NCBI GenBank assembly: GCA_965112155.1
Contig: OZ218107.1
Reading direction: 5' to 3' (one strand)
DNA length: 64,000 nucleotides
Source of the DNA: Podarcis liolepis
Taxonomy: Eukaryota
Shown here piece by piece: positions 21,657 through 52,913 of this stretch. A program made the translations under genes and the position numbers. The first letter of the stretch is position 1; each line of letters opens with the position of its first letter. The notes under the pieces were generated by a model. That model was not told where the DNA came from. It saw only the letters and a program-made list of their open reading frames with translations, and did no database searches.

Positions 21657-21989
21657 CTGCAAGACAAAACCAGGCCCTTCCCGCGTTAGGCTTCCGCTTG
21701 CGCCAGTGCATAAATGCAAACTCAGTCTGTCCTTTCAATGGCGGCACTTAACATTTATTACATTCTCTTTATTTTGAAGGCTTGTGAGACACACACACAA
21801 CCAGCTTTTAACCTAATGACTCTCAAAATGCGAATACATCTCAGAGCTGAGGTAATCAATGTGGTGCCCTCCAGATGCTGTTGGACTACAGCTCCCATGA
21901 TCCCACGCTGACTGGGGCTGATGGGAGTTGGAGGCCAACATCTGGAGGGCAGGACATTGGCTACCCCGAACTTAGACCAAATGTTGATT

Positions 21990-22184
21990 ACAGGTAGGTA
22001 GCCGTGTTGGTCTGCCGTAGTTGAAACAAAATAAAAAAAATCCTTCCAGTAGCACCTTAGAGACCAACTAAGTTTGTTATTGGTATGAGCTTTCGTGTGC
22101 ATGCACACTTCTTCAGATACACTGAAATGCACACGAAAGCTCATACCAATAACAAACTTGGTTGGTCTCTAAGGTGCTACTGGA
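21990..22184 (-). mobile_element. Penelope-like retroelement (PLE) terminal fragment with inverted partial duplication
   Basis: 12-bp perfect TSD caaatgttgatt (21978-21989 / 22185-22196); 58-bp inverted arms; embedded minimal hammerhead typical of PLE pseudo-LTRs. Confidence 0.85.
22083..22120 (-). ncRNA. Minimal type I hammerhead ribozyme motif
   Basis: GUAU-CUGAAGA-A-GUGUG CAUG CACAC-GAAA-GC-UC|AUAC: stem I GUAU/AUAC, CUGANGA box, stem II, GAAA box, AGCU helix III, UC cleavage site. Confidence 0.8.
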
Positions 22185-23337
22185 CAAATGTTGATTGTTT
22201 AGTTGATTTAAATTCAGTGTGTCTGGATATGATGCATTATCCCTCATTTTCTGCTTCTACATTCACTGTGTTGCCCCTCTCCCTAGGTTAGCGTGAACTC
22301 AGAAAGGCTAAGCAATTTTTCAAGCTAATCTGCCTGCAACAATGTGAAAGAAATTATGAGAAACTAGCATCAGCCTCCCTTGTGTCGTGCTAGAAGTTTG
22401 TGACACAAAATACACCGGCCTTTTTGGATTCACACTACTCTTCGTGCCGAATGACACTGAGAATTTCCCACAGAACACCTTCCACATTTCTACCTACTTT
22501 AGAGAGTAGGTGACTGCAGAAATTTGCTCAAATGGCTCATCTTCTGAAAGACACACACACACACACAAGCCCGACTACGGAAAACAGCAGCGATGTTTTG
22601 CCAATTGCATTACGTTGTTATAGCAACTGCAATTTTTGTAAAATGACGACAAGAAACAGATCGTGTATATAAAGAACTTGGCAATTAGGTATGTTGGCGG
22701 AAGCCATCTCATGGGGAGGCAAACACTGTAAAGAATCCAAATGGGGGTTTCCCAAAGCTTTTCAGTGCTAAATTTTCATATTCCCTCCATGCCTTTTGCT
22801 GCTGCTACTAAAAGGCTTAGTGTGATAAAAAAAAAAGCTACTTCAAGGGAAGCGGCATTTTTTGTTGAACTTTTAGTTAGTTGCTTGTTGCATTTATATT
22901 CTGCCTCTTTTTTTGCCAATTTGCCAATTTGCCAATTAAAAATGTTAATGAGTAGCGCTAAATAACTTCAGGCTGACTTCAGGAGCTGATGGCAGCAATT
23001 CCATAGCCTGGGCTTCCTGGCTTCTGCGTTCCCTCAGGGAACACAGGCCTTAAGTAGCCTCAGGGAAGGAGGGGGAGGTTTCTGCCTTCCCTCACAGCAC
23101 ATAGGGCTTTCTTTATAAGCCCCAGGTAGCCCCAATAATTACCTCAGACCTTTGATGGTCCCTTCATGGGCTCCCCGGCCTAGGTTCCCTGGCATCTGCG
23201 TTTCCTCAGGACGCAGGGCTTGAGGAACCCCAAGGAAGGTGGGGCTCACAGGGCAAACTGTAATTTTAAGTTGTTTAAAACTGTTTTTAACCATTGTGTT
23301 TTTATTCTTGTAACCTTTAGTACTGGGACCTTAGGAT

Positions 23338-23384
23338 AGGGTAGGGTAGGGTAGTAGTAGTAGTAGTAGTAGTAGTAATAGTAA
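23338..23384. repeat. (GGGTA)3(GTA)n simple repeat ending a LINE-like tail
   Basis: Seen directly. Confidence 0.8.
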
Positions 23385-26300
23385 CTGCAGTTCCCACATG
23401 GGTTGGGAGAACTGAGTACAGAACCACTGTAAATCTAGAAATGTCACTACATTAAAGATGGCACTCTCAGCGCTCCTGGGGTAACAAGAGAAAAAGGTTG
23501 CAATTGTCCACAGTAGAGGAACAGTAGTTAAAAATCAAAACATTGTCAACACACCGGACACGTCCATCATCCCTAGCTACCAGAACCAATGTTCAGAGAT
23601 GATGGGAGTTGTAGTTCAAAAATAGTTTGAGACCCAAGTTGGGGAAAGTTTGTTCTAGAGGGAGCTGTTAGCTATTTGCAGCTGTCAGAAGTAACCCAAA
23701 GGCCCAAACCAACAGTCCACCCTGACAGAATAGATTTGCTTTCCCATGCCAGCCCCTTTCCTGAATTTGCAGAGATAAAACAACAGGACCTTTCTTGTGT
23801 TCCTTGTCTCTCATCCAACGTTGGGGAAGGAACTCTTGCAACCCTGCAAGGAAGCTATTGAAGCTCTGTATATAAACGCCAAATTTATTCAAAGAGGTTT
23901 GGGCTCTGCGTTAGCGAGGCTATAGTCTTGGGTGCTGTTGTTTTATAGGCTGTGTATATTGGTTAAAACTCTTAATTGAATTCCGTGGAATTCTAGATGG
24001 AATTCTATTTTTGCTTTAGTGTAATTTGATGCTTGTGTTCACTGCTTGAGGGGGGCGGTCCTGGTTCGGGTTAATAAGCAGGGTAGAGATTTGTTACGTA
24101 AATAAACAAAAGTCAAGAATCGCCCTTCCACACATCTCCTGAAAGGGCAGGGAAGGCTCTATCCTTAACTGTGCTCACTCATCCATTCTAAGAGATCGTG
24201 AGAAAATTATCGTTGAAGACCTTGCTGTCCTTTTTATAAGACTGCTGTAATCCTCCTCTTAACTTTTATATTTCGCTTTCTAAATTAGGCTAAGCTACGT
24301 TTTCAAGCACAGCATACTGGTGAAAACCTCTGAACTGAAAGCCTAGTCACACCTTAGTGATGCGGCGCTATGATAATATCACTTGAACAGCCAGCGCCTG
24401 TTGATTCCCGGGTCATTTATTTGGGCAAGAAATTGAACTATGCACTTGGCTAATTTTTAAAATTCATCTAATATAAATTCCACAGTATATATGACCTTCA
24501 GTTTTACACACTTATCCATTGTCTCCACGAGGTGGCACTCTTTCATTACGTTACACTCGAAGGCCCCTGGGTTTCTTATTGCATTCCTTGCTGCTGCTCA
24601 TAATCATGAGAATTGACAGCAAGTGTAAAACGCCTATTGATTTAAAAACCGTTATGCAAAATGCATACATAAAAATAGCGGATCGAAATTCAACCTCTTC
24701 AGCACAATCCTATATGTTTAGTTTGGAGCAAGTTCCAATGTGTTCAATGGACCTATTCACAAGTAAGTGTACATATAATCTGGTGCACACTTAGCTGGGA
24801 ATAAACTGTACTGACTATAATGGGATTTACTTCAAATAAATATGATTGGGTTGCACTGTTAGCAAAGAAGTCATTTTTCTTAACCTTATAAAAATGCTCC
24901 ATGTATCTCATTCTTATGTCACAGTAAACCATGGTTTACCATGCACGTGCAGATAACTCTTGTTTTGCTCCTCCCTGAGTGCAGGTGGGAGCCACAAACC
25001 ACCATCCCTCACTTAGCATTTCATGCAAACTGGGGGTCATGGGTTAATTTACTTCAACGAAACCAAGGCCCGAAGCCACGGTTTGTTCTTGGCTTAACAA
25101 CCATGGTTTGCCTGAGTGAAACAAACAATGAACTCCGCTTCAGACATAAGACTAAGCTAGGGATCACACTGGGGAGCAGCAAAGCAGGATCAATCTTCAC
25201 ATTTACAGTAAAGCATTAACTATGCTTTACCATAACTTGTGAACTGGGCCGTTTTCATTTACAGCTTGATTCGGTGCCTGCTTAGATGGAAGTGTGTCCC
25301 ACTAAATTCAATGAGGCTTACTTCCTAATAAAACCCTACACTTTAGGGTTGCCATCCAAGAAAAGACTCTGCATTCAGAAAATCTTGGAAAAGGACTAGA
25401 TATTGTGCATCCACGTTGTTATTTCAATGTGAGAAATTCTTCCCATATTGCGTGGCATTTGTCTGCATCCTTATTTATAATAGATTGTTTTTGATATGGA
25501 ACAAACGTAGCCATATGAGCATCGTCATTATGAAACCCAAAATTAAGATTTTCCTGTCCCTGTAGCGATGTTTGGCATGCTTGACATTGTTGCAAGCCAG
25601 GGCCTAAAGGCCTGATCTGGATCCCATCTGGAGACTGAATTAATTTTCCAGGCACTCAAAGTATGTCCAGGATATTAATACAGTGACTTTGGGTTATTTC
25701 TGGAGCAAACTGGGGAGGGGGGTGTGGGGAGAGAAAGAACTAATCCCTAATTATCTCTGAATAGGTTTCACAGCCACCAAGCAGCACTGTGCATTGCCTC
25801 TATGCATACACAGCCTAACCTAAACTGTAGAGCCTTCAGAATGCTGACATAGCTAAATGTTTACTGAACATAAATAATTAGGGTTTCAGAGTGTTAGTTT
25901 TTTCAGAATAATGGAACTTTCAGACTAATGGAACTTTCCATAACATGGCTGGTTGTTCATACATCATGATTCTGAGGCACCCCAAATGCATGAAACAGAG
26001 GACTATCTGTAACCAATTAGAGACACACACAGAAACCGCTGCCTTATAAAATGCAATGCATCATTGCACTAATCCAGTGACTTGTGTGTGTTGTTATGAA
26101 TATGAATTGGATGCATGATAATTTCATCGAATCCAATTCCGCATTCGTTGTTTATTAGTATTTCACATTTTATTTCATCCTTCCTCCATGAATCCCCCAC
26201 CACGCTAACTCTCACAACGACCCTGTGGGGCAGGTTAGACTGAGAGACAGTCAGTTTTGAACTCAGGTCTTCTTGCTCCAAGTCCAAACTACTTTAGCCA

Positions 26301-26654
26301 CTACCCAACATTGACCAGAACACATAGAAAGAATAGATACTCAAGGTTGGCATGTTCCATTGAAATGAATGGGGAGGCAGTGTTGGATAGGGGAGCACCT
26401 GTGTGTAGGGGAGCCCCAATGCATGGAACAAGATCAAGACATTTAATTTCAACTCACTCTTTACAGAATTAATCTTGGCCACCAATTTCTATTGCATTTA
26501 GTGCCTTTTCCCATTTTGCTATGAAAATGTGAATTACTTCTCCCAGGAAGACCATCACGACAAGAGGGAAATTACCCTGGCCCCATCCAGCAGCCGGAGG
26601 AACTGCAGGGAGCTATCTTCCCACCTCATTGGGAAGTTATAAAGTCCTTGTAAA

Positions 26655-26767
26655 CATGGGCACAGCCAAGGTGGGGCAGGGTGGGGCAGTTGACCCCCTC
26701 AAAATCAATAAAAATCCATAGCTAACTGAGGTTCTGCCCCCTAACAAAAATCCTGGCTAGGCCCATG
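26655..26767. mobile_element. Small hAT-type MITE (113 bp)
   Basis: Perfect 8-bp TSD cttgtaaa; TIR catgggc...agcca / tggct...gcccatg. Confidence 0.85.
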
Positions 26768-27321
26768 CTTGTAAATGCCTGAGTTGGCTAAGAACTAGTG
26801 TCTGACCCCCTGTCTTCCCTCCTAATCCCTTTTCCTTTTGTGTCATGTTTTTTAGATGGTTAATCTGAGCATAGAGCCCATTTTATTGCTAATAACTGTA
26901 AGCAGATCTGGGAGCCTTTTTGGCTGAACAGTGGAGTGAAAAACCCTACACATTAAATTAAAAAAGTAAAAAAAATATAGTTCTAGCATTTGACATGTTT
27001 CACTAGATGTATGGTTAACCTATGAAATGTGTTTTGTAAGGTATAGTAAAGAGCAGGAACATCATGGGCCTTTCACACCTAGCACACACCAGTGAATTTG
27101 CTCTGGGTCCAGCAGGAGCCCTGTCTAACTGTGAAAATTTCCACCTTTAAGACAATATTAAGAGCTACAATTCTTAAAGAGTTCCCTGTGCAGAGTGACT
27201 GCTTGTTAAACAACTCTGGAAATTGTAGCTCTGGGGCTGCCTAAGAGCTCTCGGGATGCTCAAAGAACTACAGCTCCCAGAATTCTATGGGAGAAGCCAT
27301 GACTGTTGAAAGCACTTTAAA

Positions 27322-27667
27322 AGTAAAGGTAAAGGGACCCCTGACCATTAGGTCCAGTCGTGACCGACTCTGGGGTTGTGGTGCTCATCTCGCTTTATTG
27401 GCAAAGGAAGCCAGCGTACAGTCATGTGGCCAGCATGACTAAGCCGCTTCAGGTGAACCAGGGCAGCACACGGAAATGCCGTTTACCTTCCCGCTGGAGC
27501 GGTACCTATTTATCTACTTGCACTTTGAAGTGCTTTCAAACTGCTAGGTTGGCAGGAGCAGGGACCGAGCAACGGGAGCTCACCCCGTCGCGGGGATTCA
27601 AACCGCCAACATTCCGATCGGCAAGCCCTAGGCTCTGTGGTTTAACCCACAGCGCCACCCATGTCCC
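27322..27667 (-). mobile_element. Sauria SINE
   Basis: Reverse copy with aaaggt tail; 13-bp TSD aaagcactttaaa (27309-27321 / 27669-27681). Confidence 0.92.
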
Positions 27668-27851
27668 AAAAGCACTTTAAATGGCCATTTAAATTGATTC
27701 CAGTGAGTGATGTTAATGTAGCCATGGTCTGACGGACCAGAGTTCTAAACCTCTCACTTCCTCCCTCTTGCACATGCCTGCACATTCAGGCGTCCCCATG
27801 TGTGAGGACAATGTACCCATGCTCCAGCAAACAGGCCCTACACCTCCTCAC

Positions 27852-52008: not shown

Positions 52009-52143
52009 CAGGCATAGGCAAACCTGGCCCTCCAGATGTTTTGGGACTACGACTCCCATCATCCCTGACCACTGGTCCTGTTAGCTAGGGATGGTGGGAG
52101 TTGTAGTCCCAAAACATCTAGAGGGTTGAGTTTGCCTAGGCAG
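52009..52143. mobile_element. hAT-type hairpin MITE, best-preserved copy
   Basis: Long near-perfect inverted arms taggcaaac...gatgttttgggactac / gtagtcccaaaacatc...gtttgccta. Confidence 0.82.
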
Positions 52144-52510: not shown

Positions 52511-52913
52511 TCAGTTACCTGCATCTGCTCTGAACTCTATTTAACCTTCATTGCTACTCCAGGTAGGCACCACAAAACCTTCCACCCCTTTCGGCCAAGC
52601 TCCCAAATAGCTTTATTACATATTGTCCACCTCACATGAAATTGCACAGGAATTGAAGTAAATCCATGAGTTTCGAGACCGCTGCTAAATTTTCATCAGA
52701 TGTGAGCTGCAGACTCGGTAACACACAGTTGTAGAGGGAAATGGTGGCATCTTTCCCCTATTCAATGCCTGTGTAAAGCTTTTTTACATTTGTGGGGGGC
52801 AGGGAACAGGGTCATGCTACTAACAGAATGGATGCAAGGAATAGATGTTTGGTCACCCTAGACTTGGAGCCCCACATGGCTTTGGTTTTTTGGGGGGTGC
52901 TACCATACTCAAC

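Follow-up and report, generated by a model that had tools for sequence, protein, structure and literature searches.

A two-armed Penelope-like fragment with a probably silent hammerhead motif in an intron of lizard HIPK2

For Penelope-like elements (PLEs), an inverted, truncated pseudo-LTR (pLTR) with a tail and a target site duplication (TSD) of 9-10 bp has been described as the typical insertion structure (PMC3846280, PMC8557442), and the tail is described in PMC11167929 and PMC8557442. For Poseidon of Anolis carolinensis (PAc), the enzyme was reported to cleave and extend both target strands in vitro and to begin reverse transcription from two internal sites, by which the tail is defined (PMC11167929). 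The hammerhead of this element cut only with the element's protein and was dispensable for insertion in vitro, and the same account reports no RNA-seq reads ending at the hammerhead cut site (PMC11167929). In another report, cleavage by a single minimal hammerhead of S. mansoni was undetectable, and dimers cut little (PMC4209133). The steps that make short and inverted insertions are left open by the one in vitro study, as far as it describes them (PMC11167929).

Here, a window of 64,000 nt from the lizard Podarcis liolepis (assembly GCA_965112155.1, contig OZ218107.1) was analyzed, in which an exact 12-bp TSD, CAAATGTTGATT, brackets a 195-bp insert (Table 1). Element positions (q) are counted along the minus strand from q1, with q7 at window position 22120 and q137 at 21990. 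On a reading that we hold with high confidence, the insert is a non-coding, two-armed scrap of an abundant PLE, likely left by one insertion event and likely neutral, with a hammerhead that is predicted to be silent. The TSD, the insert, its inverted arms, and the 24-nt loop had been placed by a first-pass annotation of this DNA, and sequence comparison returned all of them at the same positions. The arms are identical at 57 of 58 positions; at the single mismatch (22069 versus 22160), the inverted arm carries G, whereas the main copy and its close relatives carry A. Within q7-137, a single position of the main copy departs from the majority sequence of 29 close relatives, and the main copy meets the inverted arm at a 1-nt microhomology. 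The hairpin folds at -107.1 kcal/mol (z -20; equally stable shuffles, 0/200), and folding predicts a near-perfect 58-bp duplex, in line with the long double-stranded RNA proposed earlier.

Table 1. Features of the insert and its host intron in the window.
Feature	Coordinates	Strand	Remarks
HIPK2 host intron	21657..27851	-	6,195 nt; GT at 27851, AG ending at 21657; exon prediction
TSD, left copy	21978..21989	.	the two bases beside the insert (AA, minus strand) coincide with those that come next in the element
Penelope tail, ~34 nt (q104-137)	21990..22023	-	found at one end of the insert only
Main copy: pLTR 3' end, 137 nt, 5'-truncated	21990..22126	-	q1 = 22126
Main-copy segment pairing with the inverted arm (q25-82)	22045..22102	-	
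Minimal type I hammerhead	22083..22120	-	sequence and energy evaluation; architecture as in PMC4209133, as far as described there
Loop, 24 nt (q1-24): stem I 5' strand, CUGAAGA, stem II 5' strand	22103..22126	-	
Inverted second copy (q25-82), head-to-head with the main copy	22127..22184	+	terminates within the stem II palindrome
TSD, right copy	22185..22196	.	exact repeat of the left copy

With Pen2a_Av (PMC3846280; scheme in PMC8557442), the family shares the head-to-head inverted pLTR, the one-sided tail of 30-40 nt, the short TSD, and a TATA box in the pLTR. Unlike elements of that type as described there, the insert has no ORF, both its arms consist of pLTR ends alone (137 and 58 nt), its TSD is 12 bp, and its arm, starting at q82, is shorter than the family's usual q93-107. 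Other identities were rejected: a MITE is ruled out by the retroelement ends serving as arms, the 12-bp TSD, and the one-sided tail; a microRNA precursor by its Rfam scores (mir-466, 35.6 bits versus a gathering threshold of 85; MIR1222, 31.7 versus 90); and an assembly artefact by the insert junctions found in independent runs. A separate element of 115 bp with 30-bp inverted ends, likely a MITE, lies 12 nt from the TSD (21851-21965); it is very abundant in all runs and has relatives in the window at 52035, 56886, 40216, and 38784, with sub-threshold Rfam matches to mir-5408.

Relatives of the insert that extend further upstream run into a GIY-YIG frame, and intact 926-codon frames (RVT_1, E 1e-11; GIY-YIG, E 2e-5) lie between pLTRs that are 91% identical to the window copy, at one locus in the classic tandem-plus-inverted layout. 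The Penelope-like origin proposed in the first-pass annotation was borne out by this reverse transcriptase frame with a C-terminal GIY-YIG domain beside a closely similar pLTR, and the insert has the features of an EN+ Penelope-like fragment, namely the family ORF, the pLTR hammerhead, an inverted 5'-truncated copy, and the one-sided tail plus TSD. In a homology search with the family protein, the best named relatives were from lizards and turtles, mostly at 60-65%. PAc, too, is a reptile PLE whose hammerhead sits at the border of pLTR and ORF, whose tail is defined by two internal start points, and whose target is AT-rich, according to PMC11167929; in the intact copies of the present family, however, an ATG inside the hammerhead is followed by a stop and the long frame opens further 3'. 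Intact and apparently identical 926-codon ORFs were also seen in tandem and inverted arrays at L255 (G000:C1:101118701-101128700) and L256-L258, and the major subfamily looks recently active.

The exact 35-nt ribozyme core occurs in 11,579 copies genome-wide (reversed control, 0). In a tail-anchored sample (the best 30 of 41 hits, one being the window itself), 22 of the 29 other copies had an inverted partner within 700 bp, adjacent in 19, and a TSD of 12-18 nt was present in about 18 copies. A 76-nt stretch spanning the whole ribozyme gave 94 matches, which made 92 loci after the window was set aside and one pair was counted once: 46 were plain, 9 carried an inverted copy that did not cover the cut site, 24 were locked (an arm over the cut site of a single ribozyme), and 13 held two opposed hammerheads. 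An arm thus lay over the cut site at 37 of the 92 loci, and 55 were unlocked. A further sample of 94 cores, drawn from the initial 5 Mb of contig C1, contained 56 in locked or double arrangements, with doubles counted per core; the frequency of the armed layout was taken from these samples. The arm identity of the insert is in the upper range, with 5 of 36 other armed loci reaching 98.2% (median, 95.6%). The fold-back layout is therefore routine in this family and already in print for Penelope elements.

Two-strand priming of the arms is inferred by analogy with the Anolis enzyme in vitro (PMC11167929). The element's protein would have nicked both target strands 12 nt apart, and each nicked end would have primed cDNA at an internal site of the element RNA. 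The tailed cDNA would have reached q1, the other would have stopped at q25 in the palindromic stem II, and the two would have been joined head to head through the 1-nt microhomology. An unlikely but serious competitor is that the arm came from fold-back and self-priming at the DNA level, by a template switch at the palindrome, instead of from a second primed cDNA. Arkhipova et al. ascribe inverted junctions that are palindromic to self-priming, with an antisense strand serving as template (PMC3846280); in the present family, the inner end of the partner arm falls at q18-33, in or beside the 14-nt palindrome, at 31 of 43 single-ribozyme loci, and the outer end at q82 is nonstandard for the insert. 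However, in most relatives the two arms differ in their outer ends, which match two groups of 3' ends (q93-107 and q131-142, or about q100 and q140) that armed loci typically combine one each, and many junctions carry filler or re-copied pieces and not a clean palindrome. Self-priming alters the origin of the arm and leaves the functional verdict unchanged. With regard to the RNA template, 3 of the 30 tail-anchored copies start at q38-44 and none exactly at q41; thus, there is no sign that cleaved RNA was copied.

The 5' ends of the family were also informative. When the search pattern was extended in the 5' direction, exact genome-wide counts fell from 11,579 at q11 to 9,801 at q7, 7,780 at q6, 5,031 at q4, and 4,163 at q1, counts that also take in point differences. 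The loss per base was 4% inside, about 20% over q7 to q4, and 6% beyond, and 4,770 of the copies reaching q7 (49%) were lost within the next three bases. In the 94-core sample, 41 5' ends fell at q3-7, 8 at q8-11, and the other 45 were scattered between q-539 and q-6. This pile-up is at the far (5') edge of the hammerhead structure and not where an enzyme arriving from the 3' side would stall. In the subfamily of the window, TATATAAG starts at q-24 and the ends peak at q7 (35 versus 3 at q5), whereas in the major subfamily TATATAGA starts at q-26 and the ends peak more at q5 (19 versus 13 at q7). For this contrast, the Fisher p value was 5e-6 (1e-4 without five microhomology cases), and the TATA-to-peak offset was +31 in both subfamilies; q5 and q7 (window 22122 and 22120) are both G.

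A G preceded 28 of 48 q7 ends (31% expected, p 7e-5). Four of these in the first set could be templated by the arm, and among 21 armless copies starting at q3-7, most of them without a called TSD, an untemplated G was made clear by the TSD in one. The q5 ends showed no excess of G (6/19). Re-copied CTGAAG-like pieces stood just upstream in 15 of 96 cases, against 3.5%, although three of these represent one unrelated neighboring repeat. The pile-up suggests run-off of reverse transcriptase at the capped 5' end of an RNA. More fully, instead of being truncated at random on the 5' side, the short solo and fold-back hammerhead scraps may be complete, strong-stop-like run-off copies of an RNA that starts 31 nt after the pLTR TATA box, where the cap would leave an extra G, slipping would re-copy the first bases, and two cDNAs primed on both strands would join at the palindromic stem II; we hold the chances of this full account to be evenly balanced. 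Alternatively, the TTTCAG of q0-5 may serve as a splice acceptor, as described for D. virilis (PMC4209133). As weak evidence against run-off, four RNA runs listed no start peak at q5 or q7. A literature search covering few subscription papers found nothing relevant on a start-site or cap signature in Penelope copies, and Fig. S2 of PMC11167929 may already show a 5' pile-up.

The age of the insertion was assessed with contigs assembled from four runs, in which junction contigs hold 19-28 element letters, below the 31-letter bridge threshold. The right-flank contigs of X1 (organism A, 24 letters), X3 (organism B, 28 letters), and X11 (organism G, 21 letters) start within the arm, and X11 also has the left junction, with 19 element letters; in run X4, the right flank is absent from the contigs. 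Because these contigs run into 21-28 exact arm letters, where at an empty site they would continue into the left flank, the site is filled. A 207-nt skip was seen in 0 of 15 rows among those listed in the joint table (94 further rows). Between the flanks and the window, 8 of 940 letters differ in X3 and 12 of 837 in X11 (~1-1.5%); X3 apparently carries the odd G of the arm at 22160, and its one other letter is at 22373. Judged from these contigs, the insertion predates the split of lineages about 1-1.5% apart. The earlier suggestion of a recent, possibly polymorphic insertion was not upheld: the junction is common to three organism labels, and no sign of polymorphism was seen. At usual rates of divergence, the insertion is presumably a few million years old, and the one mismatch in 58 fits such an age. 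Within its subfamily, the insert is on the young side, as judged from its single difference from the majority and from arms that are as alike in 5 of 36 armed loci.

The host gene was identified from a minus-strand kinase exon matching HIPK2 at 40 of 40 residues, and 321 nt separate the insert from the 3' splice site. First mates from two RNA runs covered the HIPK2 exons on the plus strand only, as expected because a minus-strand gene gives this pattern in the usual stranded library. HIPK2 being on the minus strand, the hammerhead is sense to it and the arm is transcribed first, as had been proposed. In four RNA runs of organism G, two exons were covered at a depth of ~0-8, the unique intron was almost uncovered, and no splice joints were listed; the insert drew RNA reads of other copies, 96-98% of which ran on into unlike sequence.

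Several other repeats occur in or near HIPK2. A second fold-back with two opposed intact hammerheads is located near the presumed 5' end of the gene (L103, G000:C11:23624463-23624697). The long 5' intron holds a young-looking LTR retroelement, which we take to be gypsy-like, in antisense orientation with a 1,556-codon pol-like frame on the plus strand (L093, G000:C11 about 23523400-23530000). Another abundant repeat occupies 27320-27660 of the window, in the same intron as the insert. A few RNA reads from other loci join the end of this repeat (27659) to a Penelope piece at 22050, which suggests a composite element elsewhere.

On the minus strand, the hammerhead motif reads GUAU-CUGAAGA-A-GUGUG(CAUG)CACAC-GAAA-GC-UC-AUAC, with a predicted cut after 22087. 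Stem I (GUAU/AUAC) is formed by 22120-22117 and 22086-22083, CUGAAGA (22116-22110) is followed by an unpaired A, stem II (22108-22095, GUGUG/CACAC) lies inside the 14-nt palindrome (22096-22109), and GAAA occupies 22094-22091. A palindromic AGCU stands without a loop 3, and G15.2 adjoins C16.2; therefore, helix III cannot close within one molecule. The motif thus has CUGAnGA, GAAA, UH, helices I and II, palindromic 15.2-16.2, and no loop 3, as in minimal type I hammerheads. Metazoan PLEs carry such hammerheads with the same short helix I, unpaired base before helix II, G10.1-C11.1, palindromic 15.2-16.2, and missing loop 3, mostly solo and genome-wide, with opposite-strand pairs already noted (PMC4209133). 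Helix II is 5 bp here (6-7 within the perfect palindrome), versus 7-8 in the hammerheads of that report. An Rfam scan of the sequence gave no hammerhead match at E<=1, and the only other core match in the window, at 52705, is unrelated. Like non-LTR retrozymes, the insert is non-coding, hammerhead-bearing, and PLE-derived (10.64898/2026.07.22.740005). A retrozyme as defined there, however, needs at least two tandem units with same-strand hammerheads, and the insert has one hammerhead, the sole core, and an antisense arm; this identity was rejected. No tandem hammerhead was found within 1.5 kb at any of the 92 identical-ribozyme loci.

Folded alone, the hammerhead has a folding energy of just -6 to -7 kcal/mol. 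Within 420 nt of pre-mRNA, each of the 12 bases of 22094-22083 is predicted to pair with the arm at a probability of at least 0.997. In the HIPK2 pre-mRNA, the arm would emerge first and form, as a by-product, the 58-bp duplex over GAAA and the cut site. As a prediction, this agrees with the pairing described in the first-pass annotation, which also correctly left CUGAAGA within the loop and regarded the plus-strand look-alike as nonfunctional: its 'ctgaa' is merely the complement of the first five bases of the main copy. The read ends of four RNA runs showed no peak at 22087, which says nothing either way in fragmented libraries with reads from other copies. The hammerhead is likely to be silent with or without the arm. 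Because such a motif is expected to need a second hammerhead to cut, and in Anolis the element's protein as well, the intron would need no shield.

The first-pass annotation had further proposed that the arm switches the ribozyme off and so explains why a sense hammerhead is tolerated in this intron. Put as selection, HIPK2 pre-mRNA would be cleaved in vivo by the sense hammerhead, with help from the element's protein or from other copies acting in trans, and introns would retain armed insertions only. We judge this very improbable. Besides the predicted pairing, the intact protein-coding copies in the genome speak in its favor, with protein-assisted cutting reported for the Anolis motif (PMC11167929), as does a mild depletion of tandem retrozymes in Xenopus introns (42-44% intronic, called avoided after normalizing; 10.64898/2026.07.22.740005). 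However, armless copies with the identical ribozyme lie in sense orientation in the last intron of PTGS2 (L152, G000:C6:90352474) and in intron 1 of a MAPKAP-type kinase gene (L153), and the lack of loop 3 leaves the monomer without helix III. We take the kinase gene to be MAPKAPK5. Gene strands came from an exon finder and Pfam for ~12 of the 92 loci (60 candidates); among the six unlocked loci with a gene strand, L152, L153, and L186 are sense and L159, L164, and L169 antisense, and exons on both sides were found for L152 and L153 only. L152 also retains the pLTR TATA box and is a possible intronic promoter in PTGS2.

The T-A skew of the flanks was used as a proxy for the direction of transcription. 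The 55 unlocked loci showed no strand bias (+0.0014 +/- 0.0047; 27 positive, 28 negative; 14 above +0.03 and 14 below -0.03). The 24 locked single-ribozyme loci, at -0.0088 +/- 0.0064 with 10 positive, leaned opposite to the direction predicted by a lock, also beyond +/-0.03 (2 versus 7); the difference between the groups had a p value of 0.27. This test is weak: HIPK2 calibrated at +0.028 (sd, 0.032 per 10 kb; 12 of 15 bins positive), the 10 kb around the insert gave -0.020, the wrong sign for the direction of HIPK2, and total exclusion of sense copies was disfavored at just z 1.3-3.5, depending on the assumed genic share. A partial strand bias is compatible with these data. On orientation bias in Penelope copies, a literature search covering few subscription papers found nothing relevant. 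As a predicted fold, the lock stands; as an account of tolerance, it is superfluous. Of the first reading overall, the origin, the sense hammerhead, and the predicted pairing stand, and the role in tolerance, the youth, and the polymorphism do not.

It is equally improbable that the 58-bp duplex truly acts on HIPK2 or the element through A-to-I editing, small RNAs, or a change in how the exon 321 nt downstream is spliced: the near-perfect predicted duplex, the small RNAs antisense to Penelope that were reported from a rotifer (PMC3846280), and the persistence of the insertion across organism labels would fit such an effect, but thousands of such hairpins exist in the genome without this one being distinctive, arms elsewhere decay (pooled mismatch, 4.1%), and persistence across 1-1.5% divergence is expected of neutral DNA.

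In conclusion, the insert is a known kind of Penelope footprint, one of thousands, with no sign of function. The locus directly answers, in the negative, whether intronic sense hammerheads of this type need a shield. If true, the run-off reading would account for the solo minimal hammerheads that flood animal genomes, and the start site of the element would be mappable from DNA alone. The TATA-linked pile-up of 5' ends, in a genome with intact elements, offers a testable handle on how short and inverted Penelope insertions are made.
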